From: a virus
Direction: 5' to 3' (one strand)
IMG/VR virus record: IMGVR_UViG_3300025009_000052
Length of the DNA stretch: 64,000 bases
The notes under the pieces were generated by a model. The model was not told where the DNA came from, ran no database searches, and was given only the letters and a program-made list of their open reading frames with translations. Position numbers and translations under genes: made by a program. Of the stretch, positions 11,233-64,000 are shown piece after piece (within the stretch, counting starts at the first letter, position 1; each line of letters opens with the position of its first letter).

Positions 11233-11826
11233 CTACTTTTGTTCTAAAAAGAACGCATATCCTAATAAGATAGCGTCTGCCCTGTCTTCATCTTTAAGTT
11301 TAAGATCTAAATTGAACAGTTCATTAACCCTACGGACGTTAACGTGTTTTTTTCCGACTTTGCCTAATCGCTTACCGTCACTGTCCTTGACGACCTTCTC
11401 ACCTAAACCGTGTTTGGTTCTGACAGTTTTATTTTGTTTTTTTTCTTCAGTGGTCATTAGGCAGCCACATACCCTACGCCACTCTTCAGTTCGGTAATAT
11501 TTAGCCGGAGTCATTGTATAACTTATCATTTCAGCCACCCTAAGGTGTATGAATTCCAATATTTTTTGTGAAAAGTTGTTTTTAGAACCCTTAGATGTTT
11601 CCTCAATGACTAATTTGTCTGGACTAAACTGTTTCATTAATTTTTCAATTTCCCTAAAACACTCCCAGGACCACTGTAAATAGTCCATAGGATATTCGAT
11701 TTTAGGTTTTTCAATTTTTGGTAAAGTTCCAGACGCTAATAGTTCATATTTATTATCTTTTATGTGCGCTACCGAATATCCTGTCTTGGTTGAAAGATCC
11801 AAAGACAGGACAGTTATAGAATCCAC
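11233..11826 (-). CDS. RuvC-like Holliday junction resolvase
   Basis: LSLDLSTKTGYS, LVIEE, DEDRADAILLG. Confidence 0.85.
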   Translation of the reverse strand: MDSITVLSLDLSTKTGYSVAHIKDNKYELLASGTLPKIEKPKIEYPMDYLQWSWECFREIEKLMKQFSPDKLVIEETSKGSKNNFSQKILEFIHLRVAEMISYTMTPAKYYRTEEWRRVCGCLMTTEEKKQNKTVRTKHGLGEKVVKDSDGKRLGKVGKKHVNVRRVNELFNLDLKLKDEDRADAILLGYAFFLEQK

Positions 11827-32872: not shown

Positions 32873-33094
32873 TTATGGTCTCAAATTATTTTGTGTACTT
32901 TTAATTTTCATCCATAATTTTTTATACCAAGGCAGTTCGAGATATTCCACCCTAGCATGAATATCAACGTATTTTCTAGTGGTTTGGGCAAATACCTTAT
33001 TCATTTCAACCACAGACTTAGCCAAGTCGGGGTCGTCGAGTACTTGGGACAATTTAATTTCTAAGTTTTTAAATATAATATTACTTTTTTCCAT
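32873..33094 (-). CDS. hypothetical protein
   Basis: 73 aa, coupled to groEL. Confidence 0.6.
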   Translation of the reverse strand: MEKSNIIFKNLEIKLSQVLDDPDLAKSVVEMNKVFAQTTRKYVDIHARVEYLELPWYKKLWMKIKSTQNNLRP

Positions 33095-34857
33095 TATGGC
33101 CTCAAATTAGCTTCGTTTACTTGTGATTCTGGATTATCTATTATTCTTTTATGTTCCATTTCGTCAATAGCATGGCTTCTTTCTAAACTAGCATCTCTTG
33201 GGTAAGCCACTATACCGCCCAATGTTCCCATAACCATAGAGATACTTACCGCATTTTTTAAAGCCTGTTCTACGGCCCTAGTAGCATCTAAAACGCCCAT
33301 TTTCTTAGCATCTCCAAACTTAGCATTTTCCACATCATAAGTAATATTAGGATCTTCTATCATCCTAGTTAGTATTTCTTGGATTTCCTCATAAGTATAA
33401 CCTGCATTATCTAAAAGTCTATAAAACGGTGCAAATAAAGAAGGAATGATTATTTGTTGAGATACTAAGTCATTGTCGTCATTAAGGGACATGGCTAAAT
33501 TAATTAGAACTCGACAGCCGCCAGGTACGCATCCGTCTGTAATTGCGGCTCTAACGGCACAAACTGCATCTTCAGCTCTATCAGCTTTTTCTTTTAACTC
33601 CCCATTAGACGAGCCAAATATTTTTAGTTTAGCTATTCCATTGGTTAATTTACCCAGTCTTTCTTCTAAAATTGATTTTTCGAGTTTAGATTCGGAAGTT
33701 TCTCTTTGGACCTCGAGTTCTCCAGCCCTGCTTTCAATATTAAGAGCGTCTGGGTCACCAACAATAGTAGTTCTAAAACGAGAAATTTCAATTCTTTCCA
33801 TATCTTTGCCAAAATCTTCTATTTTAGCTTCTGTTAATGGATTAGACATATCAAATATTGATGCGCCAGTAAATGCCGACACATCCTTTAAAAATTCCAA
33901 TTCTGAATTTATAATTGGCATTATTGGTGTAGCTAAAGGAACAACGTTGATTGAATTAGGATTTTGAAAGTTAAAACTTAATTGGGTTAATACCTGATCG
34001 CTAAATTTATGTGCAATAATAACTACGTTTTTAAAATCGGAATTACCACTTACATAGGCCTCGCCAATTCTTTGCAATATATCCATTATTTGCACCATAT
34101 CATTTATCTTACCGTCAAATAAAATAAACAATGGCTTATCCATCGTACATTTTTGATGGGCTTGATCGTTAATAAATGCGGCGTGAAACTTCCCAATACT
34201 TTCCTCATATCCTTTTGAAATTGGAAATCCCTCAATTAATTCAACCTGATAACCTCCTTGGCCAGATAACTCTTGAATCGTAACGTGTGAGCTTGCTCCG
34301 TACCCTACACTATCGAAAGCTGTAATTACGGCGTCTGCCATTTCAGAATCACCATTAGCTGAGATGGTAGCTACTTTTTTCAATAAAGATTTGTTTTTAT
34401 CATTAATTACAATTGAAGCCGCTTTTATTTGAGGTATTAACTTATCGTTTAATATTTTTTGGATAAGTCTGGTGGTTTTCTGTGGACTGTATTTTCGATT
34501 ATTTTCACAGAAATTGAATAAGTTCTTAATTAAGGCAGCGGCTATAATAGTTGCGGTTGTCGTTCCGTCTCCCGCTTCCGATACAGTTCTAACCGCCACA
34601 TCTCTAGTTTGCTCGGTTATTAAATGTTTATAGGCATTTTCATAGCCTAAAGATCTAAAAATAGTAACACCGTCTTTGGTATTTTTGTTAGGAATTTCAG
34701 GTAGTTCTGACTCTATAATAACATTCCTTCCACCGGGCCCAAGGGACTTTCCTACAATATCATCTATTTCATCCACAGTAGAAATTATAATTTTTTTTAA
34801 ATCCGCCGAATTACTTGTAAACATTTTAGATGGGGTTTTTACTTTTCTTACAGACAT
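33094..34857 (-). CDS. groEL: GroEL-like chaperonin
   Basis: SLGPGGRNV, TKDGVT, AGDGTTTA, ATISANGD, VPGGC. Confidence 0.96.
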   Translation of the reverse strand: MSVRKVKTPSKMFTSNSADLKKIIISTVDEIDDIVGKSLGPGGRNVIIESELPEIPNKNTKDGVTIFRSLGYENAYKHLITEQTRDVAVRTVSEAGDGTTTATIIAAALIKNLFNFCENNRKYSPQKTTRLIQKILNDKLIPQIKAASIVINDKNKSLLKKVATISANGDSEMADAVITAFDSVGYGASSHVTIQELSGQGGYQVELIEGFPISKGYEESIGKFHAAFINDQAHQKCTMDKPLFILFDGKINDMVQIMDILQRIGEAYVSGNSDFKNVVIIAHKFSDQVLTQLSFNFQNPNSINVVPLATPIMPIINSELEFLKDVSAFTGASIFDMSNPLTEAKIEDFGKDMERIEISRFRTTIVGDPDALNIESRAGELEVQRETSESKLEKSILEERLGKLTNGIAKLKIFGSSNGELKEKADRAEDAVCAVRAAITDGCVPGGCRVLINLAMSLNDDNDLVSQQIIIPSLFAPFYRLLDNAGYTYEEIQEILTRMIEDPNITYDVENAKFGDAKKMGVLDATRAVEQALKNAVSISMVMGTLGGIVAYPRDASLERSHAIDEMEHKRIIDNPESQVNEANLRP

Positions 34858-38053: not shown

Positions 38054-39637
38054 TTACAATAAAATAGACCATCTTTTTTTACCACAATCCCAAATTCTGT
38101 ATAATTCTAAGGACATGGCTAATTCTTTTTCAGTATTAGCCATAGTTCCTACAGCGCCTTTCTTTAAAAGTAAATCTTTTTTATTGCTTTGTTTGCTTTG
38201 TCTAGTCATATCTGGAGCGACGTAACTGTAATCTGGAAGCAAGTGTTCAACAAGCTTAAAACCGCATTTTTCATAAACAGTCCCTTCTGAGTATCTATTA
38301 TCTGACCAGGAGATCAATTCTTTATAGCCCATATCTTTAGCATATTCCGTTAGTTTTTTAACTAATCTAGAAGCCCCTCCTAATATTTGAACGCCGTCTT
38401 TAAAAACTAAACGATTTAAAACAAACGGAGTTCCTTCACCCTTCTGTCTATGGTGAATGTTTCCAGTAACTAATCCTAACAATTCGTCTTCAAAATAAAG
38501 GCCAAAAGCAATTTTAAAAGTGGTTTTACCTTGTATATGATGGTCGTCTAGGAATTTAGCAGCAATTGATCTTTCAACTTCTTTTAATTCGCATTTTCTA
38601 GCGTAGATTTTTCTATCATAAATCCCTAAAACAGACTTGAGATAGTTTTTAACTTGGGAGTTTCTATCTAACCACTCGTCTTCAAATATAGTTATAAGGC
38701 GAATTCCTTGTTCGTTAGCTTGTTTCATTTTGTCGTAGTGATAGTTGTGGTTTTCAGCATGTTTGGGTATTCGTTCCGAATGCCAGTGTAATCCATTATA
38801 CTCAATGGCCAAATTTAAAGATGGGATGTAAATATCAAGTTCTTTACCTTTAGTTTTCCCCTTAAATCTTAATTTTTCAGCATGGAACCCAAATGAAGTT
38901 ATCCAATTGTGGACTATCCCTTCGGTTTTAGAGGTTCCGTTACAAGAACAATGACCACAATCTTGTGAGTAAAAATTAGTTAATCTATTTTCTCTTATAA
39001 AACCACATTTATCATGTATAGCTTTTAATGGAAACCTTTTTATAGAATAAGACTCTTCTATTAGCGTATATCCTAGGGCTTTTAACTGATCACGAACTTG
39101 ATCGATAGTTAGGGTTTTTCCGCATTTGTTTCTAGGATCTCCTTGGAATATTTTAGCAAACGCTTTTTCGTAAATAAATCCGTCAGGTGCCAATATTGTG
39201 ACGAATGTATTCTGGGAACTTATTATTTTATGAGATTGGTCTGGTAGTCTTTGTTGTAATATATCTATAGGAAGGGAACAATCTTCCTTGTGGGCGTCAA
39301 ACTTACCTCTTATAACCGCCCTATATTGTGGATGTTGATTTAATATCTTTTTAGCGGTTTCTGGGTGTATTTCTAATTGCCTAATGGTTTGATTTAATTT
39401 TATTTTTTGATTATCTTTTAGGGCTTGTTCTAACACTAATAGAAATTTATTTTGTTTGTCGTAATGCTTTTTGCCTAACCTACTGACCATATTTATATTG
39501 TATTTTTTTATCCAATAGTTAATGTTTTGTCGGTCAATTTTTAACTCAGCCCCTATTTCATTTTGATTATAGCCCTCGGATGCCATTTGTGTAATTTTTT
39601 CTAAAATTTCTGGTGTTAGTTGTGATTGATAAGACAT
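38054..39637 (-). CDS. free-standing homing-type endonuclease (HTH + PD-(D/E)xK + IYARKC...RIWDCG domain)
   Basis: ELDIYIP..LAIEYNGLHWH, LITIFEDEW; own promoter; likely start MSYQSQ. Confidence 0.75.
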   Translation of the reverse strand: MSYQSQLTPEILEKITQMASEGYNQNEIGAELKIDRQNINYWIKKYNINMVSRLGKKHYDKQNKFLLVLEQALKDNQKIKLNQTIRQLEIHPETAKKILNQHPQYRAVIRGKFDAHKEDCSLPIDILQQRLPDQSHKIISSQNTFVTILAPDGFIYEKAFAKIFQGDPRNKCGKTLTIDQVRDQLKALGYTLIEESYSIKRFPLKAIHDKCGFIRENRLTNFYSQDCGHCSCNGTSKTEGIVHNWITSFGFHAEKLRFKGKTKGKELDIYIPSLNLAIEYNGLHWHSERIPKHAENHNYHYDKMKQANEQGIRLITIFEDEWLDRNSQVKNYLKSVLGIYDRKIYARKCELKEVERSIAAKFLDDHHIQGKTTFKIAFGLYFEDELLGLVTGNIHHRQKGEGTPFVLNRLVFKDGVQILGGASRLVKKLTEYAKDMGYKELISWSDNRYSEGTVYEKCGFKLVEHLLPDYSYVAPDMTRQSKQSNKKDLLLKKGAVGTMANTEKELAMSLELYRIWDCGKKRWSILL

Positions 39638-39775
39638 AAAACCTCTTTTGTTATATAATCTATTATACCACAAACTAATATAAAATGATCTATATTTTAT
39701 AAAAATAATTTAAAATAAAAACGAACCTTCGCGTCTATTTGTTAATTTAAAGGTCGTAATTGGCTAATTGTTAGA

Positions 39776-39827: not shown

Positions 39828-41216
39828 TTAACTTAATTGACCAGAAATGTTTTCAAAAAGGACGTTTTTCCTTGGCTGATAGCCCGCGAGGCATTTGAAA
39901 GAAAAGTGCGCCTCGGGCAAGCTTAAATCGTGGAGAGCAAGTTTTAATCGTGAATATGGAGCTAATTGGTGAAAACCAAAAGTATTGGTTTGGAGCAAGA
40001 AACCAGTTACAGAACCTGGCTCTTTAAAGCCCAAATCTACGAAACTAGTTGCGCCTGATCCACTAGCTTTTACTCTACCGATAAATTTAGCAGCAGCGGC
40101 AGTTCCACCATCAGCAGATCGGTATACGTTAAAATATTTACAACCGGTTACGGCAGCGATAGCTAAAGTAACTTTTTGGCCAGCAGTAGGAGATACTTGA
40201 GCAGAAGATGTAGAAACACTCTCGCCTCTTTCGTTACAAGCGGTAGCTTTATAGTAATAATCTCCAGCAGCCAAAATAGAAGCTGCATCGTTAGCTGCGG
40301 TAGGAGTTACTGTAGCAGGGGCAGCAGGTGAGCCGGCTCTACTTCTAGCAGGAGCGGTTTTACCAGAAAGAAATCTTGAAGGTTCTAAACTAATTGTACC
40401 GTTGGATGTCCATTGGGTTCTTAGGTTAGCGCCCATAGCTTCCTGAGCAGAACCAGCAAGCATGATTCTTTCTTTTGCGTGAGCAATTTTATTATAAGCA
40501 GAAAGAGAAATCGGGTCTAGCATCAATTTATCAGCAGAACCATGATTCATAGCACTTTTAACAGCTCCGTCCTCGATAAACGATTCGGTCAAAGTACCGT
40601 TAACTGCGATAACTACTGTTTGGTTTGATCCGTATTCTGCAAACATAAGGTCTTGAGTGTTAGAAAGAGAATCTGAAAGTCTAACTTGCATATCGACGCC
40701 TTGCATTCCAGGTACGTCAGCGATTACAGCAGGGTTTCCATCGAAAACACCTGAGTTAGAAAAATCAGCTTGTCCTCTAAAACCGTCAAATTCGATATCA
40801 GCAGATAGTTTTATAGCAGCGTCGTTTCCGGCTCTGGTTTCAGCTTTTTGGCCATCAAATGCGGCAACTAAATTAGCAGCAACACTTACTCTACGAACTG
40901 TAGAATAATAAGCCATAGGTATGGTGATTCTTGAATAATTAGAAGTATCCTCTTCGCCAATTCCACCCTCATACTGAGCAGATCCGCCGAAAATTCCGTA
41001 ATCTAATTGACGGTTAAATTGTACCAAAGTACCTTTTGCGTCTTTAACTGAGAACATTTTTTGCAATTTAATTTGTTTGTCGTCAAAACAAACATTTTCC
41101 ATAACTGGGGATAGATCTTCAATCTGAAGAGCCGATCCTTGTTGTAAAGAACTTGGTGCTGCGTTGTAACTACCAGCTTCCAAGGCTTTCATAAGGTCAT
41201 TCAATTGGTTTACCAT
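39828..41216 (-). CDS. major capsid protein
   Basis: DLMKALEAG...GSALQIEDL N-terminus as in Herelleviridae-like MCPs, with an inserted Ig/FN3-like segment; strongly biased codon usage. Confidence 0.85.
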   Translation of the reverse strand: MVNQLNDLMKALEAGSYNAAPSSLQQGSALQIEDLSPVMENVCFDDKQIKLQKMFSVKDAKGTLVQFNRQLDYGIFGGSAQYEGGIGEEDTSNYSRITIPMAYYSTVRRVSVAANLVAAFDGQKAETRAGNDAAIKLSADIEFDGFRGQADFSNSGVFDGNPAVIADVPGMQGVDMQVRLSDSLSNTQDLMFAEYGSNQTVVIAVNGTLTESFIEDGAVKSAMNHGSADKLMLDPISLSAYNKIAHAKERIMLAGSAQEAMGANLRTQWTSNGTISLEPSRFLSGKTAPARSRAGSPAAPATVTPTAANDAASILAAGDYYYKATACNERGESVSTSSAQVSPTAGQKVTLAIAAVTGCKYFNVYRSADGGTAAAAKFIGRVKASGSGATSFVDLGFKEPGSVTGFLLQTNTFGFHQLAPYSRLKLALHDLSLPEAHFSFKCLAGYQPRKNVLFENISGQLS

Positions 41217-50101: not shown

Positions 50102-51970
50102 ATGGGTAGGGGAATCAAAATACTAATAGATAAAGACCGACTAATAGATTTATATCTAAACCAAAACAAGACTATACCCGAAACAGCTAAGGAATTGAAT
50201 TGTGGCCACACTAGTATTATAAGATATCTCAAGAAATACAATATTACTAAACCCTTAGAGTTAAAACACCAAAATGTTTCGAGATCAAATCGAAGAATAG
50301 ATCATCAAAAGTTAATTGACGACTATTTGGTTAATAAAATGCTTACTCCTGAAATAGCTAAAAAATATAACACCAATGTATCGTCTGTTGCAAGGATATT
50401 GTCCGATCACAATGTTGATGTGGACGATCGATATAGGCAATACCGAAAAAAAGTAGCCGACGACAATATTCCCTATAAAGATATTATTGAATTGTATATT
50501 AATCAAAATAAGACAGCTTTAGAGGTGGCAAATATTCTTAAAATAAGTGAATTTAAAATTAGAAAGTGTATGGATAAAATAGGCACAAAGAAAACGAAAG
50601 AAATGTGGACTAAGTTAAATACTAATAAAGACACGCAATGGGATTTACTAAAAAATCCAGAATGGTTTTACCAAAAATATATTTCAGAAAACAAGACTAT
50701 AATTGAGGTTGCTAAGGAGGCTGGGTCAACCATTAGAATGGCTAGGCTTTATCGGATTAAGTATGGTTTTAAAAAGAGTACCGAGCAGAAGGGTAGTTTT
50801 TTACAAAAAAATAACAGTAATGTTAAAGATAAAGAATGGCTATATCAAAAGTATATTGTAGAGAATACTAGAATTATCGAAATAGCCGAACAGGAAAATA
50901 TTAGTATGTGGTTGGTTGAATATTATATTCATAAGTTTAACCTACACAAAAGCCATGCGCTCAAAAGAAAGCTTAGGATAGAAACTAATATAAGCAGGGG
51001 GAACCAGACTTGTATTTTTGGGCAAACGATCGATGAATTGGCGGAACAATACAAATTATCACATTCTTTTACTTGGTCTTTGTTTAAGAGGAATTCCTTC
51101 TCCACCTATGAAGAATTACACTCTTTTTTGGCTAAAATCAGTATAGATAGATTTACTAGTTTAGAACTGTATACCAATAAGCTTTTGGGGCTAGAGAATT
51201 ATAATCAAAAAGCACACCTCACATTAAACTATAAGCCGGATTTCAAAATAAGTGACATTTTATATTTAAACGTTGATGGTTTGTATTGGCACTGTGAAAA
51301 AGAGGTGGACGATAGTTACTATCATTTTACCATGAGACAAAAATATGAGGAGTTAGGTCTGCAAATTCTCCAATTCCGTGAAAACGATATTTATAAAAAT
51401 CCTGAAATAGTCAAGTCTATTGTGAATAATAAGACAAATACTAATATTGCAACTATCTACGGTCGTAAAACTGAAATTAAAGAAGTAAAAACTGAGGACG
51501 CTAAAGAATTCCTAACTAGGTGCCATTTAAAGGGCTATTTTTCGGGAAAACACATAGGTCTGTATTATAATGGCAATCTTAAGAGTGTGCTAAGTTATAA
51601 GATTTACGATAAAAACACCCTTAAAGTTGAAAGATTCTGTACAGATTTGAATACTAGAATTATTGGTGGGTTCTCTAAGTTATTAAAATATTTAGAAAGA
51701 AATGAGAGTTTTAAAGAAGTTTATTATTGGGTTGATTTAAAGTATGGAACTGGTAAATTTTTAGAGCAATTGGGATTCCAACACTCTCACGATACTTTAG
51801 GTTGGGAATGGACGGATAAGTTTGATACCTTTAATCGTAGAAGGTGTCGGGCTAATATGGATGAGAGGAAGCTTAAAGAACGTGAATATGCCAATGAATT
51901 AAAATGGTATAAGATTTACGATGCTGGTCAGAGGTTATTTGTGAGGAAATATGTACAAACTACTACTTAA
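50102..51970 (+). CDS. free-standing endonuclease with tandem HTH repeats; same C-terminal family as 38054
   Basis: Repeated L...Y.....T..EIA; KPDF..VDGLYWH; IYGRKT...KIYDAG. Confidence 0.75.
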   Translation: MGRGIKILIDKDRLIDLYLNQNKTIPETAKELNCGHTSIIRYLKKYNITKPLELKHQNVSRSNRRIDHQKLIDDYLVNKMLTPEIAKKYNTNVSSVARILSDHNVDVDDRYRQYRKKVADDNIPYKDIIELYINQNKTALEVANILKISEFKIRKCMDKIGTKKTKEMWTKLNTNKDTQWDLLKNPEWFYQKYISENKTIIEVAKEAGSTIRMARLYRIKYGFKKSTEQKGSFLQKNNSNVKDKEWLYQKYIVENTRIIEIAEQENISMWLVEYYIHKFNLHKSHALKRKLRIETNISRGNQTCIFGQTIDELAEQYKLSHSFTWSLFKRNSFSTYEELHSFLAKISIDRFTSLELYTNKLLGLENYNQKAHLTLNYKPDFKISDILYLNVDGLYWHCEKEVDDSYYHFTMRQKYEELGLQILQFRENDIYKNPEIVKSIVNNKTNTNIATIYGRKTEIKEVKTEDAKEFLTRCHLKGYFSGKHIGLYYNGNLKSVLSYKIYDKNTLKVERFCTDLNTRIIGGFSKLLKYLERNESFKEVYYWVDLKYGTGKFLEQLGFQHSHDTLGWEWTDKFDTFNRRRCRANMDERKLKEREYANELKWYKIYDAGQRLFVRKYVQTTT

Positions 51971-56019: not shown

Positions 56020-59000
56020 ATGGATAAGTTACAGGATTTACTAGAAAAAATAGAAGAAGTAATAGAGCAAGATCTTCAGAAACAACATATTTCCGATCTC
56101 TTCAAAGGTGGTAAAAAAGCTAATATCGGCGAAACCAGAACTTGGGATGGAAAAGACTATATCAAAACCCAAGATGGTTGGGACTATGTTGCTCAGGGGC
56201 ATGAGCCAAAAACTAATGAGCAGCCTAAACAACCTCCAGAAGTTCAAAAACCAGTTTCAGATATTAAAACTCCTCATGAAGTAAAATCTCCAGAGCCTCA
56301 AGTATCAAAGCCCCAGGAAGAAACAGAACAAACGAAAGAAGTTGTTGAGTCACCAAGACAAGAAATTTCCGAAACCTCAGAAGAAAAACAAGAAGAATAT
56401 GTAAACGCTCGTAAATCCAAGGTTTCTAACTTGGGTAAAGATATAAAAGGCTCAGCTAGACATAAAAGACAATATAGCTCTATTAAAGATATGGGAACTG
56501 CCGAAATATCCGATATTACCGTTAAAAACCTATTGAAACAATTCCCTATCAATCTAATAGACGATGTAGCTAAGGACAATCCAATTATCCCCTATGTAGC
56601 CAACCAAATTTTAAATAGATTTCCTGCTAGTCCAAAACACGAAGTTCAAAAAGAAATGTATTTGGAAACTTTTGAATATGTTAGAAATAGAGTTCAAGAG
56701 CTGTCTAAACAAAAAGACTTATTATTTACCGACGTTATTTCAGCTATCCAAAAAGAAATTGTTGCTAAGATTAAAGAAAACAGGGCTTCTGAAAACTATG
56801 TAAGAGGTTCCGACGACTTCTTAGTTCCCTATGTAAATAAAACCTTAAATTTTAGAAAAACAAAGGGCTCTGTTGGTCAAGACGTTGAGGATTTAGTAAA
56901 TGCTTTTGCTAGAACACTACCTGAATCCGATCAGGATGGGTTAAGTGTTGGTTATATGCTTAAGGAAACTAGACAAGCTGCTATGGCTGAATTTTATACC
57001 GAAGAGGGCGTAAGAAAAATAAAAGACTTGGTGGAAGGAAAGTCTTTAAGTAAAGTTTTTGAAATAGTCTCAGAAGGTAAAAAATCTAAAAAGTTTTCTG
57101 TAGCCGAGATCTATACTCAAGACGCTAAAAGAACTGGCCCAGATACTAAATTAACTACCGAAGAAGACCAAGCTAATTTTATTATAAAATCCTGTGAAAT
57201 GAAGGGTTTACAGTGGGGAAATAGTGTTACTGACGAAGAAAGAAAACACCATTTGAAAATGTCTTCCGAAGCCTTTAAGGATTTGGCAGATATATTAGAC
57301 TTACCCGAAAAAATGATTTCATTTAATGGTAGGTTAGGGTTAGCAATTGGAGCCAGAGGCCACGGAACTGCTTTAGCTCATTATGAACCAAAAGAAATTG
57401 CTATTAATTTAACTAGGTCGAAAGGTGTCGGATCATTGGCTCATGAATGGGGCCATTTTTTAGACAATATTTTATCCAAAACTCATGGTGTAAATGCTCA
57501 CCCAGAAAATCAATTCTTATCCGAATCTGCTGTTTGGAATATGGGTGATAAATCTCCGGTTCAAGAATCTATGAAAGAATTGGTTAAATCAGATGCTTGG
57601 AAAAGCTTTAAAGACTCTACCCGTGATGCTCTTAATGATTTAGCTAAACACGGAATTAAGGAAAAGCCTAGCTATTGGATGTCACCTAAGGAATTATTCG
57701 CCAGAGCTTTTGAAGGATATATTAGTTATAAATTAAAATCCAAAGACAGAGAAAATACATATTTATCTGGTGGCAGCGAAGGTTTAATGTGGTGTACCAA
57801 GGAACAAAAAGAAAAATTGGCACCATATTTCGATAAATTTTTTGAAGAATTGAAAAAATCAGATCATATTAAGAAGGCTATGGATTTAGAAAACGATTTG
57901 CAGAAAGGAAGTCTTCAAAGTAAAATGGGTAATCCCAAAAAACAATTAAGACCTCAAGAGACTAATACTATGATCAATTGGGTATCAGAGCAGCAACCTA
58001 GGGAAAATATCCCAGAAGCCACCAATAAAGCCAAACAGAGGTTTTTTCATAAGCTACATTCTCAAACAGAAGTAAAAAAACATCCTAAAACTGGGGAGAG
58101 AATGTTTTTAATGCATAGGGGTACTGAGACTGATTCGGACACACACAATACATCACTATCATCTTGGACGCCAAACTACAATATAGCTAATGATTTTGCC
58201 GACAGTATTGACGACGATGGTACGAAAAGTACAGTTCATTCTGCTTGGATACCAGAAAGTGCTATTCATAATTACATACCGAATTCAATTGATAGAGATA
58301 TTAAAGAATACGATGAGTTAATCCCGAGAGAGCAGGAGTACATCGTTAAGCCACATAATTTTTTACATGCTAATTGGCAAAAATTACCTAACAAAGAAGG
58401 ACTTGATCGTAAGATAAACTGGAAACAGCGAATATATGGTAAAGGGGGTAGGCTGGCAGCCGGCGAAAATATAGAAAATGATTTGACTAAATCTAAAATT
58501 AACGCAGATGAAGAAGGTGAAATAATTAAGAAAAATAAAGAAAAAGCTGAGGCCAAAAGAAAACACAAATTTAAAGCTGCTCAGTGGACGCACCCAAATG
58601 GACACCCAAGATGTATTATTTGTGGTGACGAAGAAAGGATTGATGGATATTGTAGTCCATCTTTAGATAAATCCCAAACTAAATGGCATAAAAGAAACGG
58701 TATTTTACAGAAAAGTTGGAGAAAAGCTATTGCAACAGGAGCCGCCCTATCAACAATGTTAGTGGGAGCCCACAATATGGGTCAAAACAAAGAACCTGGC
58801 AGGCAACCTTCTTCTGTTGATCAGTCTCAAATAAACCAAGTAAAAATTGCCCCAGACCATGGTTTAAAATCTGACATGTTACATAATATTAAGAATAATC
58901 CTATTGTTGAAAACAATGTTTTACCTAAAGGTAGGTTTGGACAATATAGCCTGTCTCAAAACGCTATTAAAAGTGTTTTTAATAAAAACCAAACATTAGG

Positions 59001-59262
59001 TGAAAGGTATGGCCATTTATTAAAACTTTCCCCCAATGAATTAGATCAACAACTAAAAAACGATCCTAATTTAGACCATCAATTGGCAGATTCTCATTGG
59101 CATAATTTACAGAGTGAGTTTGGAAACAAACCTGACCATATAGCCCATGCTTGGTATCAAAATCCAGAGAATACCAGACAGGAAAGCCAACTTAAGGGAG
59201 GTGATTCTAATTTTAATAATCACTTCTATGTGTCCAAAATCATTAAGAATCTTAAAAAATAG
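56020..59262 (+). CDS. large polyvalent protein: LPD1/zincin metallopeptidase + ART-like + Zn finger + lysozyme-like
   Basis: LGLAIGARG..AHYEP..INLT..GSLAHEWGH..ELFARAFE; HRG..SSWT..EQEYIV; CIICG; FGQY...AHAWY. Confidence 0.75.
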   Translation: MDKLQDLLEKIEEVIEQDLQKQHISDLFKGGKKANIGETRTWDGKDYIKTQDGWDYVAQGHEPKTNEQPKQPPEVQKPVSDIKTPHEVKSPEPQVSKPQEETEQTKEVVESPRQEISETSEEKQEEYVNARKSKVSNLGKDIKGSARHKRQYSSIKDMGTAEISDITVKNLLKQFPINLIDDVAKDNPIIPYVANQILNRFPASPKHEVQKEMYLETFEYVRNRVQELSKQKDLLFTDVISAIQKEIVAKIKENRASENYVRGSDDFLVPYVNKTLNFRKTKGSVGQDVEDLVNAFARTLPESDQDGLSVGYMLKETRQAAMAEFYTEEGVRKIKDLVEGKSLSKVFEIVSEGKKSKKFSVAEIYTQDAKRTGPDTKLTTEEDQANFIIKSCEMKGLQWGNSVTDEERKHHLKMSSEAFKDLADILDLPEKMISFNGRLGLAIGARGHGTALAHYEPKEIAINLTRSKGVGSLAHEWGHFLDNILSKTHGVNAHPENQFLSESAVWNMGDKSPVQESMKELVKSDAWKSFKDSTRDALNDLAKHGIKEKPSYWMSPKELFARAFEGYISYKLKSKDRENTYLSGGSEGLMWCTKEQKEKLAPYFDKFFEELKKSDHIKKAMDLENDLQKGSLQSKMGNPKKQLRPQETNTMINWVSEQQPRENIPEATNKAKQRFFHKLHSQTEVKKHPKTGERMFLMHRGTETDSDTHNTSLSSWTPNYNIANDFADSIDDDGTKSTVHSAWIPESAIHNYIPNSIDRDIKEYDELIPREQEYIVKPHNFLHANWQKLPNKEGLDRKINWKQRIYGKGGRLAAGENIENDLTKSKINADEEGEIIKKNKEKAEAKRKHKFKAAQWTHPNGHPRCIICGDEERIDGYCSPSLDKSQTKWHKRNGILQKSWRKAIATGAALSTMLVGAHNMGQNKEPGRQPSSVDQSQINQVKIAPDHGLKSDMLHNIKNNPIVENNVLPKGRFGQYSLSQNAIKSVFNKNQTLGERYGHLLKLSPNELDQQLKNDPNLDHQLADSHWHNLQSEFGNKPDHIAHAWYQNPENTRQESQLKGGDSNFNNHFYVSKIIKNLKK

Positions 59263-59297
59263 TTTGATTTGAATTAGCTTCTGTGGTAATATATAGT

Positions 59298-59780
59298 ATG
59301 GGATTTAAATATTTTTTAACCACCGCCTTATTATTAGTTACAATATGTACTTTTGGGGAAAACGATAACCCAAAACGAACCTACAGACAGATCTTAAAAA
59401 ATAAGCCCAATATAGATAAGAAATATGCGACTAAATTAGCTAAACTTATTGATAGACATAGCATAAAACATAAGATACCAGCCCATATCTATACCGCCAT
59501 ATTAATGCAAGAAAGTGGGTATAAATTGGGCGCTAAAAGGTGTATTAAGAAGTGTACTGATTTTGGGATTAGCCAAATTAACCATAGAACAGCGAAAAGC
59601 TACAACCTAGATAGGTCTAAATTACTGAAAGACTTAGACTATTCGATTTGGGCCGGTGCTATGGTGTTGGCAGATTTTAAAAGATACAAAAAAACTGAAA
59701 AGCGTTGGTGGTCAAGATATAATGCGTCAAGTAAACATAAAAGACTGGAGTATGAAAAACTAGTTAAAAGGTATTTTTAA
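59298..59780 (+). CDS. lytic transglycosylase (SLT) with signal peptide
   Basis: AILMQES, DFGISQIN, RYN; likely leaderless start at 59298. Confidence 0.9.
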   Translation: MGFKYFLTTALLLVTICTFGENDNPKRTYRQILKNKPNIDKKYATKLAKLIDRHSIKHKIPAHIYTAILMQESGYKLGAKRCIKKCTDFGISQINHRTAKSYNLDRSKLLKDLDYSIWAGAMVLADFKRYKKTEKRWWSRYNASSKHKRLEYEKLVKRYF

Positions 59781-60618: not shown

Positions 60619-60879
60619 ATGGCGGTTGATTTTAAAAAGATCTATGAACTTAGAGAGCAACTAAATGAGTTGCTAGAACAAAGACCTGAGATGAAATATT
60701 ATCAGGAATTTATTGATAAAGAATTGGAAAAAGCCGGTGATAATCCACATAATAGGTGTGCGGTTCTAGAAAACCTTCTAAGAGATAATCAAAAAAAGCT
60801 AAGAGAGGCCTGGCAAGAATTACAACATGATTGTAAAAAACTTAAAAAATTAGCAGATAGACTAAAAGAAGATGAGTAA
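60619..60879 (+). CDS. helical hypothetical protein
   Basis: 86 aa, in operon. Confidence 0.6.
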   Translation: MAVDFKKIYELREQLNELLEQRPEMKYYQEFIDKELEKAGDNPHNRCAVLENLLRDNQKKLREAWQELQHDCKKLKKLADRLKEDE

Positions 60880-61747
60880 GATTAACGTACTTCCAATCGA
60901 AATACCAGATATCGGCTTCACTTTTGAGGCTCAAGAGCAGTTTGCTACAGACAAGGGAATTTTACTTGAGCATTGGGTAGCTATACCTTCTCCTATTGGT
61001 TTAAAAGATAGGGGTGACTATCGAAGATCTGGCGAACTAGACGTTGTTTCTGAAAACGGGTTTATCTATAAAAAAGTAGGTGAATTTAAGGGTACTATTG
61101 TTAGTAATAGTAAACACAATACCAACACAGACGGTGGAATTTACGATAATTCAACGGCTAGATTAGTATTGCCTAAATATTATCAATGTCATATTAATGG
61201 CCCAGACAAAAAAGAAATATCTCTATTGCCTGGCGATCGTATTTATGCCAAAAATATAGAATTAAAAGTAGATAACTATCAAAGAGCTGAATATGGTGTT
61301 AAACATAATGACTATCTACAATTTCCAGCTAAATGTGTAAGTTACTTAATAGATTCTCAAAATATTGAGTACATATACAATGTCGATTTCACGACCGACC
61401 AGTATGGTAATATTCAGTGGATATCTGGTAATCGAAATCCAGGTATTGATATTTCTACAGGAAAAGGTAGGGTTTATTCTATTAGATATACATATTTAGC
61501 ATATTGGTATGTTTCCCAACTAATAAACGAAATTAGAGTTACTAATGATGGTGTAAATCCAGTTAGGCTCCCTTATCAATGTATGATTCAAAGAGAGTAT
61601 GTTTACCATAACGCAATTAGAAAGGCAACGGAAAATATCAATTCAACCAAAGAACAGCCGAAAAGTAGAACGCAAGTTAAACCGGACGATTCTTTAGATC
61701 CTAATAAATATGATGTAAAGGTTGATATGGGGCAGTTTGAGGAATAA
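60872..61747 (+). CDS. putative head-closure/neck protein
   Basis: L.PGDRI, YSIRY, P.Q..IQRE pattern in a late operon. Confidence 0.5.
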   Translation: MSKINVLPIEIPDIGFTFEAQEQFATDKGILLEHWVAIPSPIGLKDRGDYRRSGELDVVSENGFIYKKVGEFKGTIVSNSKHNTNTDGGIYDNSTARLVLPKYYQCHINGPDKKEISLLPGDRIYAKNIELKVDNYQRAEYGVKHNDYLQFPAKCVSYLIDSQNIEYIYNVDFTTDQYGNIQWISGNRNPGIDISTGKGRVYSIRYTYLAYWYVSQLINEIRVTNDGVNPVRLPYQCMIQREYVYHNAIRKATENINSTKEQPKSRTQVKPDDSLDPNKYDVKVDMGQFEE

Positions 61748-61790: not shown

Positions 61791-62207
61791 ATGAAGCTAA
61801 AAAACAGAAGAAAAGCCAACAATAATTATGACCCATCTAGTGTAGATTCAAATAGTTACAACGATGCTGCTGGGGCTAGAAAAACTATAGAAGTCGGCCA
61901 CCACCTAAAGCCTATTAAAACAGGGGCTACCACCTTTACTACTGACTGTTCTACAAAAACTAAAGTTGGGAAAGGCATTTCTCTAGCTATTTTTGGTGTA
62001 GCAGACGGAAGTGTAACTATTGGCGACTCAACTGTCGCTATATTAGCTACTGGGGTTACGGACGCCAATGGATTTGTAGGGATTCCAGTAATGGCGGAAC
62101 ATTGGATATACCTTAACACCTACACTTATGACTATATTATTACAAGCTCTGCCGATATTAAAGTTTTTATAATTGAAGACGATACTTATATAATAAATAC
62201 ACCATAA
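61791..62207 (+). CDS. putative virion protein
   Basis: Beta-rich, late operon. Confidence 0.55.
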   Translation: MKLKNRRKANNNYDPSSVDSNSYNDAAGARKTIEVGHHLKPIKTGATTFTTDCSTKTKVGKGISLAIFGVADGSVTIGDSTVAILATGVTDANGFVGIPVMAEHWIYLNTYTYDYIITSSADIKVFIIEDDTYIINTP

Positions 62208-63100
62208 TGAAAGAAAAAGAAAGAAATCTAATTAAAAGACTCTTAGGAGAGGATATCCTAGACAAATTGGAGAAATCTGAAATTTCTGGTGGTATTCTTA
62301 AGCTTAATACAAATACAGTTACCGACCCTAACGATATTAAAATAGCCTTACAAATCGTACCTAGATCTGTTTTAAGCTATCTGTTTATGAACTTAAAAGA
62401 TAAACAAATAGGCGATATTATTGATTTGGACTTGCCATTTGCTGAAGCTAAGCTACATATTAATAAACTATCTCCTGATAATTATAGTGGCGATTTAGTT
62501 AAAGAGGGTAAGAAAATAGCAGAATTTAAATATAGATCATTGCCATCTATTGGTTTGATCTTAATGTCCAGTTTGGAACTATATGATACTGATCAGCTTA
62601 ACAGATTGGGACCTGCCGACTATCAATCCGATAAGGCTGAAAGTTTACAAAATCTAATAGATGAAAGACTTAAGCTATACGATTTGGTTCATAGTGTTGT
62701 TGATAAGAAGATTTCAGAAAGAGAAGCTATAAAAGATTTAATTCATCAAAGGATTACTTCTGAGTTATTTAGACCTCAAATAACAATTGCTCCACAACCT
62801 GAAGAGCCAGAGCCTGATAAGAAAAGTAAGTTAAAACAATTCTTAGAAGATAGAGTAAATAGGGCTCCAGTAAAAGAAGAATCTATTGAAATGGACAAGA
62901 AAGAAATTAAATGTCCTGATTGTGGTGGGATTTTATGTAAGGGCGATGATAAGATAAGTCCCTGTATTTGCTTTGGTGAAAATATGGGTAAAGAGATAAA
63001 GGTAAAAAAAATAGAAAACGGTAGGGTAAAAATAAAATTCCCCAAAGATTTTGGTGCTGAAAATATTGAGATGTTACTTGAAGCTTTAAAAAATAAATAA
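62207..63100 (+). CDS. hypothetical protein with C-terminal zinc ribbon
   Basis: LEKSE near the N-terminus; CPDCG...CIC. Confidence 0.6.
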   Translation: MKEKERNLIKRLLGEDILDKLEKSEISGGILKLNTNTVTDPNDIKIALQIVPRSVLSYLFMNLKDKQIGDIIDLDLPFAEAKLHINKLSPDNYSGDLVKEGKKIAEFKYRSLPSIGLILMSSLELYDTDQLNRLGPADYQSDKAESLQNLIDERLKLYDLVHSVVDKKISEREAIKDLIHQRITSELFRPQITIAPQPEEPEPDKKSKLKQFLEDRVNRAPVKEESIEMDKKEIKCPDCGGILCKGDDKISPCICFGENMGKEIKVKKIENGRVKIKFPKDFGAENIEMLLEALKNK

Positions 63101-63110
63101 GGATCGATAT

Positions 63111-64000
63111 ATGGATAAAATTTATGTTAGTATTAATGGTGATAATATCGGTTCTGAACTTGGCCAAGCTATTGCTTCTGACGATCACGAAGGTCTGGGC
63201 AAATTATCCCAATCAATTAAAGATAACCATTCTGAAATAGACCAATGGGTTGAATCTAAACAAGGTCGAGTGATAGTGTCGTCTGGGGACGAATCAATAT
63301 TTGAGATTCCAATTGAAGCTGCTCAAGAATTAGAAGGAATTCGTGATAGATATAAAGAGATGTCTGGCCATAGTTTAACTATTGGCGTTGGTTCAACAAT
63401 GAGCGAGTCTTCCAAGGCTTTAATCTACGGTAAGATGAATGGAAAGAACCAAATTGTTGAGTATTCACCAGAAGTAGATAAATTTTTAGCAGAAAACAAT
63501 GTAGATGAAGATTCTGAAATTCCAGAAGATGAAAATATTCAGGAAAATGCAGATTCCTCAATTGAGGACGACTCCGATGTTCCAGAAGAGTCAGAAGATA
63601 GTGATTTAGAAGGTATACCTGAGGAAGATAATATTCCAGCAAGCGAAGAAGTCTCTGAAGAAGTCTCTGAAGAAGATATGTCCGAAGGTGATACTGTTCC
63701 AGAAGATGAAGTTAAGGAAACTGGTTTTGACGAGGAATCTACGGAACCAGAAATTGACAATATTGATGAGTCCACAGAAGGCGAAGAAATGCCTGAAGAG
63801 GATGTGTCCGAGGAAGGTGAAGAAAATTCAGAGGAAAATTTAGAAGATATATCTGAAGAAGCTCCAGAATTATCCGAAGATGACGAGAATTATTTCGATA
63901 TAAATCCAGACGAAATAGAAGAATTAAAACCCGAACACGTTGCTAATGGTGACTTAACATATCAAGGCGATCAACAAGAAAATTCAAAAGACGAAGAGGA
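63111..64000 (+). CDS. mCpol (minimal CRISPR polymerase/Cas10 palm-like) domain protein with long acidic region, partial
   Basis: Hand translation: MDKIYVSINGDNIG...GRVIVSSGDE...SLTIGVGSTMSESSKALIYGKMNGKN, then D/E-rich and open to the window end. Confidence 0.75.
   Translation, partial: MDKIYVSINGDNIGSELGQAIASDDHEGLGKLSQSIKDNHSEIDQWVESKQGRVIVSSGDESIFEIPIEAAQELEGIRDRYKEMSGHSLTIGVGSTMSESSKALIYGKMNGKNQIVEYSPEVDKFLAENNVDEDSEIPEDENIQENADSSIEDDSDVPEESEDSDLEGIPEEDNIPASEEVSEEVSEEDMSEGDTVPEDEVKETGFDEESTEPEIDNIDESTEGEEMPEEDVSEEGEENSEENLEDISEEAPELSEDDENYFDINPDEIEELKPEHVANGDLTYQGDQQENSKDEE

Follow-up and report, generated by a model that had tools for sequence, protein, structure and literature searches.

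All work on the mCpol enzyme so far concerns its role as the bacterial half of Panoptes, a defence in which the effectors are kept off by the mCpol product (PMC12657230, PMC12657218). The Panoptes mCpol, OptS, binds two ATP molecules at its dimer interface, and S30 is one of its two ATP-selecting residues (PMC12657230). Its active sites are built from two protomers, and in KpOptS the metals are held by Asp6 and Asp57, both of which are needed for full activity (PMC12657218). A second point of comparison is the polyvalent proteins of phages and conjugative elements: in Iyer et al. 2017 (PMC5512222), these are predicted to be packaged and injected with the DNA, GGDEF domains are noted among them, and interference with host nucleotide signals is suggested. 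A full-text literature search with mCpol and phage terms returned Panoptes papers and reviews only, with no description of an mCpol encoded by a phage or carried by a polyvalent protein. Here, we describe an mCpol-carrier gene at the 3' end of a 64,000-nucleotide (nt) stretch of viral DNA (IMG/VR record IMGVR_UViG_3300025009_000052; 'the window' below means this whole stretch). What is new is a known enzyme domain in a new host, a phage, in a new architecture and with a new genomic role.

An earlier interpretation made from the letters of the window alone (the sequence-only reading) had pointed to an open reading frame (ORF) running off the window end and quoted its motifs. The ORF is real, since it starts with an ATG at 63111, follows a Shine-Dalgarno-like element at a distance of 7 nt and stays open for 296 codons (63111-63998, plus strand) up to the window end, and the quoted motifs YVSINGDNIG, VIVSSGDES and LTIGVGSTMSESSKALIYGKMNGKN are all present. 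The remainder of the gene, whose retrieval the same reading had proposed, was recovered from a protein database as a protein of 470 amino acids (aa), P0001, which is identical over the window part. P0001 is encoded on a 155-kb contig from a groundwater metagenome. A fetched piece of this contig (L003) was compared with the last 10,890 nt of the window and showed 0 mismatches; the contig and the window therefore represent one genome. The phage is large, uncultured, contractile-tailed and Mx1-like, with a genome of roughly 155 kb. P0001 consists of the mCpol domain (residues 1-122), an acidic tract to about residue 365, a helical module at about 366-425 and a short acidic tail to residue 470. 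The elements of the gene that lie in the window are the following.

63099..63103, plus strand: Shine-Dalgarno-like AAGGA, 7 nt 5' of the ATG and overlapping the stop codon of the upstream gene (sequence read directly)
63111..64000, plus strand: first 296 codons of the 470-aa mCpol-carrier gene, which ends at L003:11413
63123..63464, plus strand: mCpol palm domain, residues 5-118 (Pfam PF18182, AlphaFold model, Foldseek match to OptS)
63135..63143, plus strand: first-strand motif N9-G10-D11, in which N9 aligns with the catalytic Asp6 of KpOptS
63282..63293, plus strand: hairpin motif S58-G59-D60-E61, in which D60 aligns with the catalytic Asp57 of KpOptS
63477..64000, plus strand: start of the acidic, predicted disordered linker, which extends to about residue 365 beyond the window (predicted local distance difference test score, pLDDT, about 40)

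We compared the N-terminal domain with known families by sequence and by fold. With the first 130 residues as the query, the Pfam mCpol family PF18182 was matched with an E-value of 3.7e-16 and 59.9 bits (cut-off, 26.4 bits) over model positions 1-114 of 114; Cas10 palm 2 gave a second, weaker and sub-threshold match on the same domain. The PADLOC model CARF_HEPN_mCpol also matched, at 7e-8, and in a search of the sequences in the Protein Data Bank (PDB) the sole real matches were the Panoptes mCpol structures 9nwn and 9mnr/9pd0 (E 1.3e-7). An AlphaFold model of P0001, built from 15 relatives, has a pLDDT above 90 for residues 1-125. In Foldseek, its top matches were again the Panoptes OptS structures 9pd0, 9mnr and 9nwn, with template modelling (TM) scores of 0.83-0.89 (0.85-0.89 when normalised to the target) and a root-mean-square deviation (rmsd) of 1.5-2.0 Å over 116-118 residues, at a sequence identity of 25-28%. 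GGDEF domains and Cas10 ranked far below OptS, the GGDEF structures reaching TM values of 0.45-0.58. We also considered a GGDEF diguanylate cyclase (PF00990) and rejected it: the motif reads SGDES, and Pfam at E-values up to 10 returned only mCpol and the sub-threshold Cas10 palm 2. Among PHROGs, no family matched the mCpol-carrier protein. These sequence and model comparisons, a family search and a structure prediction being the checks that the sequence-only reading had named, confirm its mCpol assignment and residues 5-118 as a true mCpol palm domain.

Next, we analyzed the active site. In the HMMER alignment to KpOptS, N9 pairs with Asp6 and D60 with Asp57, so that one of the two metal-binding aspartates is replaced, and S33 aligns with the ATP-selecting S30 of OptS. 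The sequence-only reading had taken both NGD and SGD as possible signs of inactivity. Both substitutions are real, but SGD is not a mark of inactivity, because the active KpOptS reads A-A-D at the corresponding hairpin position; by this alignment, N9 is the only substitution that touches a proven catalytic residue. Whether such substitutions are typical of homologues had also been asked, and the answer differs between the two halves of the family. In an alignment of 154 family representatives, 78 have D and 74 have N at position 9, and at position 58 there are 79 with G, 63 with S and 8 with A. Variation at these two sites is coupled almost perfectly (D9 with G58 in 77 representatives and N9 with S58 or A58 in 70). 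Other residues of the site are kept throughout the family: D11 in 153, G59 in 149, D60 in 152 and E61 in 136 of the 154, with K102 and K108 likewise near-invariant. The same holds within the N group, in which D11 is found in all 74 sequences, G59 and D60 in 73 each and E61 in 71, and N9 is invariant among the close-clade relatives.

A FastTree phylogeny of the domain placed 72 of the 73 N-type sequences in one pure clade (support, 0.79; four label changes overall), and the sister half of the family keeps D...GGDE. Given that the N-type sequences form a single clade in which the other site residues are still constrained, the N/S site is, judged from these counts and the tree, an old and stable version of the mCpol site that remains under constraint and is not decaying. 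The motif D24-D25-H26 (63180-63188) is invariant in the close clade as well. H26 accompanies N9 and S58 in 47 of 63 sequences of that type and occurs in 0 D-type sequences; the DDH motif may be part of a remodelled site.

The sequence-only reading had also called a very acidic stretch after the domain, and it is there: residues 123-340 hold 93 D/E and 5 K/R (43% D/E) within a linker of about 240 aa, which the AlphaFold model predicts to be disordered. Beyond it, the model contains three helices (366-385, 387-396 and 398-417) with a pLDDT of 81-87. A profile of this helical module was found in 132 of the 154 family representatives, that of Myxococcus phage Mx1 included. The N-terminal domain and the helical module are both 55% identical to their counterparts in relatives, and the linker 18%; in relatives, it is 55-400 aa long with 20-50% D/E and almost no K/R. 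Most N-type linkers carry conserved short motifs (QPEHE.DM, HDA.EN.DDE.D.DNIEADEE and ML.DM.HANM.DEE; alignment A1, columns ~370-430 and 570-590), of which P0001 retains the last only, as MLSNMIHGHL. These motifs suggest partner-binding sites. The long members P0008, P0010, P0012, P0013 and P0015 have basic C-terminal repeats ending in NLPKSE together with a GDRV.HN.HGAGTV motif; these are absent from P0001. An ESM Atlas search with the C-terminal module returned generic helical hairpins only. In a word-based search with this module alone, all matches were mCpol-bearing and no carrier with a different head domain was seen.

The 3' end of the gene contains a candidate site for programmed -1 frameshifting. 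Two-form phage proteins that arise in this way include the lambda tail assembly chaperones gpG and gpGT, of which gpG is acidic, and the T7 capsid proteins 10A and 10B. In the mCpol-carrier gene, a run of nine A residues at L003:11389-11397 places an in-frame heptamer A_AAA_AAA (11389-11395) at K464-K465, six codons before the stop. An ORF in the -1 frame spans L003:11386-11700 (from window position ~64496 onward), and the predicted slip product is a 567-aa protein with a basic 102-aa extension whose isoelectric point is 9.9. We then analyzed the relatives. In all of the 37 distinct short-form genes with a -1 extension of 55-115 aa, an in-frame X_XXY_YYZ heptamer, mostly A_AAA_AAG or C_CCA_AAG, lies 2-10 codons before the stop; control windows of the same size elsewhere in the same genes contain a heptamer in 4.1% of cases. 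At 33 distinct loci, the peptide of the -1 frame shows conservation (pattern LP.K.TKHI.KP..P.G.VK.GK.KV.D..TGK..W), and P0017 (91 bits), P0137, P0148, P0108 and the Mx1 protein P0016 have the same peptide, read in frame, at their C-terminus. We also considered a separate 71-aa gene called at L003:11488-11703 as the source of this conservation. It cannot explain the conserved peptide, because the conserved residues begin 5' of its ATG, the first of the -1 ORF; the called gene is probably the tail of the frameshift extension. Folding of the 75 nt that follow the site was not better than that of shuffled sequence (z 0.28), so that no downstream RNA structure was detected there; a stimulatory structure is not obligatory at A-rich slippery sites. 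We therefore predict, from these sequence features, a programmed -1 frameshift that adds the basic domain to a fraction of the chains.

To describe the distribution of the family, we counted its members and their contexts. An exhaustive search of 1.84 billion representatives gave 840 matching clusters at E <= 1e-3 and 561 at E <= 1e-10, and of the best 150, nearly all are 350-900 aa long and have the domain N-terminally. For synteny, we fetched 73 IMG/VR loci solely through a 332-aa protein encoded downstream of the mCpol-carrier gene, and took as informative the 47 that extend for 3.5 kb or more upstream. In 47 of 47, the mCpol domain and the helical module occur together in one ORF, 0.7-2.1 kb upstream of the 332-aa gene, and about 12 of roughly 40 distinct readable domains from the IMG/VR loci are N-type. 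The gene order is shared by two IMG/VR loci (L001 and L002), by the surroundings of a D-type member (L005) and by Mx1, and each of five complete relatives of 153-177 kb contains exactly one copy. This core syntenic status, like the helical module and the -1 extension, goes beyond the sequence-only reading. Patterns derived from close N-type relatives (alignment A1) found no relative in 185,579 prokaryote genomes. In 50,697 cultured phage genomes, tblastn with either the N-terminal domain or the 332-aa neighbour found Mx1 only; megablast with the region and tblastn with a D-type relative gave no match in the same set. BFVD yielded one uncharacterised relative from an uncultured phage, in addition to ordinary phage GGDEF proteins. 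The Mx1 orthologue, WNM70340.1 (OR576727.2, 33963-35369), is annotated as 'hypothetical protein', and its gene lies five genes upstream of that for the tail sheath. The protein retains the fold motifs, linker, helical module and C-terminal domain, and its site is degenerate, with S at position 9 (S8) and 'DLGAV' replacing SSGDE. The Mx1 report (PMC10720576) contains no virion proteomics.

The same mCpol subfamily is also embedded in giant relatives of 0.7-1.7 thousand aa that contain other enzyme domains, as in the following proteins.

P0144, 1716 aa: NUDIX and DUF5661; encoded in a row of three giant genes
P0150, 1372 aa: GNAT and DUF5661
P0100: S-adenosylmethionine (SAM) lyase domain (sub-threshold match)
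P0154: GNAT and NUDIX

DUF5661 is a small domain with the motif E-H-T...D-H-L...EDP.YY, found at residues 556-602 of P0150, 445-489 of P0107 and 1298-1337 of P0144. It follows the mCpol domain after ~40 residues in P0150 and P0107, and lies ~540 residues downstream of it in P0144. We considered whether DUF5661 equals the C-terminal helical module and rejected this, as the motifs differ. A literature search for DUF5661 found no paper.

We also examined the genes around the mCpol-carrier gene, of which the following are needed here.

62207..63100, plus strand: 297-aa upstream neighbour whose C-terminal motif is CPDCG...CIC, tightly coupled to the mCpol-carrier gene
60872..61747, plus strand: protein of 291 aa from the late block of the mCpol-carrier gene, matching phrog_1004 'virion structural protein' with E 3.2e-10 and conserved in relatives
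59283-59780, plus strand: SLT-type transglycosylase of the same late block, following the LPD1 gene
56020-59262, plus strand: 1080-aa protein of the same late block with an LPD1 polyvalent-protein domain (Pfam; phrog_616, E 6e-38)
39828..41216, minus strand: major head protein (phrog_752, E 1.9e-46), 22 kb from the mCpol-carrier gene and with small ORFs of its own upstream
L003:11707-12462: 251-aa gene just downstream of the mCpol-carrier gene, with a fold model of pLDDT 89

Going upstream, the order is the 297-aa gene, a 138-aa gene, the 291-aa phrog_1004 gene, the SLT lysozyme-like gene and the gene for the 1080-aa LPD1 protein. Orthologues of the 297-aa protein are encoded directly 5' of the mCpol gene in L001, L002 and L005, and the protein showed no family or solved-structure match. 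At the place matching the LPD1 and SLT genes, Mx1 has a 1480-aa NUDIX protein and a kinase. Going downstream, the 251-aa gene is followed by genes for proteins of 332 aa (weak match to an SP10 terminator), 93, 433, 94 and 861 aa, a homing endonuclease, a Phi812-type tail tube, small genes and a gene for a 1263-aa protein. The 861-aa gene, which has no family match of its own, is presumed to encode the sheath because it precedes the tube gene and by comparison with the annotated sheath of Mx1. The best match of the 251-aa model in a VIA wide search was a chain of the SaPI1 neck structure 9mu2 (Z 9.9; rmsd 2.4 Å over 101 of 109 residues), followed by a match at Z 7.8 and by ferredoxin-like cyclase folds at Z ~6; Foldseek with the same model gave no match. 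Profile searches with four neighbour families against PDB sequences also gave none. On this fold comparison, the 251-aa neighbour is neck-like and the mCpol-carrier gene stands in a head-to-tail joining block, in line with the virion gene cluster that the sequence-only reading had described.

Three candidate identities were rejected by context. A capsid scaffold is excluded by position, as the major head gene lies 22 kb away on the opposite strand. A lambda-type G/GT tail chaperone is in the wrong position, the slot between the tube and tape-measure genes being filled by other small genes. Membership of a Panoptes system was rejected because the gene has no adjacent effector and is not host-encoded: the contig that carries it is that of a phage and includes genes for capsid, sheath and tube. 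Neither a 2TM-beta nor a CARF-TM effector adjoins it, and its neighbours are virion-type without a Pfam or PHROG effector match; the absence of a partner effector, already remarked on from the letters, thus extends to the recovered neighbourhood. Two further features of the phage were observed. It encodes a GroEL-type chaperonin (33094-34857, minus strand; phrog_5725, E 4e-93). Three homing-endonuclease-type genes (HNH, NUMOD) are dispersed in its structural region, at 50102-51970 (plus strand), 38054-39673 (minus strand) and L003:18207-19046 (plus strand), one of them between the presumed sheath gene and the tube gene.

What, then, might this protein do? Its fixed position, its single copy, its predicted expression in two forms and its retention in Mx1 point to a role in the particle, either as a built-in part or as something needed for building. 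A site for nucleotide and metal that hardly varies, together with the polyvalent relatives, suggests an enzyme or a binder of nucleotides working inside the cell. We tentatively favour, at less than even confidence, a carrier, associated with the particle, for the delivery of an mCpol domain that binds or makes nucleotides, because this reading joins the two lines of evidence. The palm domain would probably form dimers or tetramers around bound nucleoside triphosphates (NTPs), by analogy with OptS. The C-terminal parts would dock the protein into the assembling particle, the ratio of the two forms being set by the frameshift and the basic 102-aa domain being present only on chains for which the ribosome slips by -1 at A_AAA_AAA. 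The mCpol domain would then be the cargo that enters the cell with the DNA, where it would bind NTPs and make a cyclic nucleotide that interferes with host nucleotide-based immunity, for example by keeping a Panoptes-like guard effector silent; in the N9/S58 clade, it may merely hold the nucleotide without turnover. A bolder and doubtful version is that the injected mCpol at once supplies the very 'all is well' cyclic nucleotide monitored by Panoptes-type guards, or a close decoy, and that the N9/S58/H26 clade has been retuned for a different product or for tight binding. If this speculation is true, it would be the first counter-defence to replenish an inhibitory immune signal instead of destroying an activating one. 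For the anti-Panoptes and decoy-messenger roles that the sequence-only reading had raised, no direct support emerged.

Several observations weigh against the delivered carrier. There is no proteomic or structural sign of any family member in a particle, and P0001 has no match to [LIM]-x-K-[SAGT], a proposed prohead-protease site motif. Since counter-defence cargo usually turns over, the retention of the domain in the same slot in 47 of 47 informative loci fits an essential morphogenetic role better. Mx1 keeps the carrier with both acidic positions lost, which implies a conserved role there without a need for catalysis, and by alignment N9 replaces a residue needed for full OptS activity (PMC12657218). 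Finally, and as weak evidence, the five complete relatives showed no match to SAVED, STIV_B116 (AcrIII-1-like), Tad2-like, Phage_gp49_66 or Cas_APE2256 (CARF), in searches of which three of five, SAVED and Cas_APE2256 included, had silent controls and which did not cover Acb1-type nucleases. An assembly role is nearly as likely as the delivered carrier. The protein would then be a morphogenetic factor that is not delivered, such as a chaperone or scaffold for a head-completion or neck step, in which NTP binding between protomers, like that of the two ATP molecules at the OptS dimer interface (PMC12657230), serves as an oligomerisation switch, the tether and helical module bind partners, and the frameshift sets the ratio of forms as in lambda G/GT. 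A core, never-swapped, single-copy gene in a neck block, programmed -1 frameshifting of the kind typical of assembly and structural proteins, an acidic linker with conserved short motifs such as ML.DM.H.N and an Mx1 protein retained without catalytic acids all agree with such a factor. However, if oligomerisation were all that counted, hundreds of clusters at 50% identity would not be expected to preserve the complete metal and nucleotide site unchanged, the domain is also found in giant proteins of the polyvalent type, which are not assembly factors, and the usual G/GT slot between tube and tape measure holds other small genes.

The remaining explanations place the function outside the particle or outside the enzyme. 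It is rather unlikely that the protein acts late and in the cytoplasm as an unpackaged enzyme whose cyclic nucleotide holds off abortive-infection effectors (anti-Panoptes) or jams the sensors of the cyclic-oligonucleotide-based antiphage signalling system (CBASS) or of type III CRISPR, its place in the operon reflecting timing only. The mCpol fold with its conserved site and the control of Panoptes effectors by the mCpol product (PMC12657230, PMC12657218) are in its favour, whereas such an enzyme has no obvious need for the tether, helical module and frameshift-controlled basic domain that are all conserved alongside, and late expression follows the action of most defences. In addition, the unmatched Tad2-like, AcrIII-1-like and Phage_gp49_66 families give no sign, in the searched relatives, of a phage that depletes the guarded signal. 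Quite unlikely, too, is a pseudo-enzyme in which the N9/S58 palm is an oligomerisation head only and the acidic tract does the work, for example as a DNA mimic occupying host DNA-binding defence proteins or the portal channel. N9 at a proven catalytic position, a 43% D/E tract almost devoid of K/R that is conserved in kind across the family, and the catalytic degeneration of Mx1 would all be expected of it, but the N clade keeps D11, G59, D60 and E61, where a dead site would drift as in Mx1, and the linker is poorly conserved in sequence (18% identity) and in length (55-400 aa). The sequence-only reading had further suggested a dominant-negative subunit, in which the phage domain co-assembles with a host mCpol and poisons it. 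OptS active sites do span two protomers (PMC12657218), and N9 could give a defective half-site; yet this is very improbable. Because loss of the mCpol product releases the Panoptes toxin (PMC12657230), a poisoned mCpol would be self-defeating for the phage, the infected cell dying early, and mixed phage/host oligomers are unlikely given an identity to OptS of only 25-28%; moreover, half of the family has a canonical site.

The tentatively preferred delivered carrier and the assembly factor would carry different consequences. In either case, throughout a clade of phages with genomes of 150-180 kb, a fold described from Panoptes has a constant place, as one gene copy, among the genes for building the particle, and its family comprises at least 561 clusters at 50% identity. 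Should the domain prove active and delivered, immune-type nucleotides would be made by the phages themselves and signalling defences would have to be seen as a two-sided exchange; if it is an assembly switch, this would be a rare recruitment of a signalling-enzyme fold into virion morphogenesis. The family also offers a natural experiment on one conserved carrier, with the D/GGDE site, the N/SGDE site and the degenerate site of Mx1, which is cultured.

Compared with the Panoptes OptS/mCpol proteins (PDB 9mnr, 9pd0 and 9nwn; PMC12657218, PMC12657230, PMC13577387), P0001 has in common the minimal Cas10-like palm fold. It differs in that OptS is bacterial and encoded in defence islands, whereas the phage gene lies in a late structural block; in that its Asp6 equivalent is Asn; in that an acidic tether, a helical module and a predicted frameshift extension follow the domain in one protein; and in that the phage mCpols form their own large group (the 561 clusters at E <= 1e-10). 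Like the genes of polyvalent proteins (PMC5512222), the P0001 gene is found among late virion genes, and its relatives fuse mCpol to NUDIX, GNAT and SAM-lyase domains. Unlike them, P0001 has one enzymatic domain, P0144, P0150, P0100 and P0154 having several, and a carrier made of a tether, three helices and a frameshift domain is not among the components given in the covered parts of that paper.

As in gpG/gpGT and 10A/10B, the P0001 gene has an in-frame X_XXY_YYZ heptamer near the stop and a conserved -1 extension; unlike gpG/gpGT, it lies outside the slot between the tube and tape-measure genes, it encodes an N-terminal enzyme fold, and its frameshift is predicted from sequence. A further known counterpart is WNM70340.1 of Mx1, an orthologue by architecture and synteny whose C-terminal domain is homologous to the frameshift extension. 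In Mx1, both acidic site positions are lost, the linker is shorter and P/G-rich, and the C-terminal domain is read in frame without a frameshift, whereas P0001 keeps a constrained site, a long acidic linker and a basic domain predicted to be reached by slippage.

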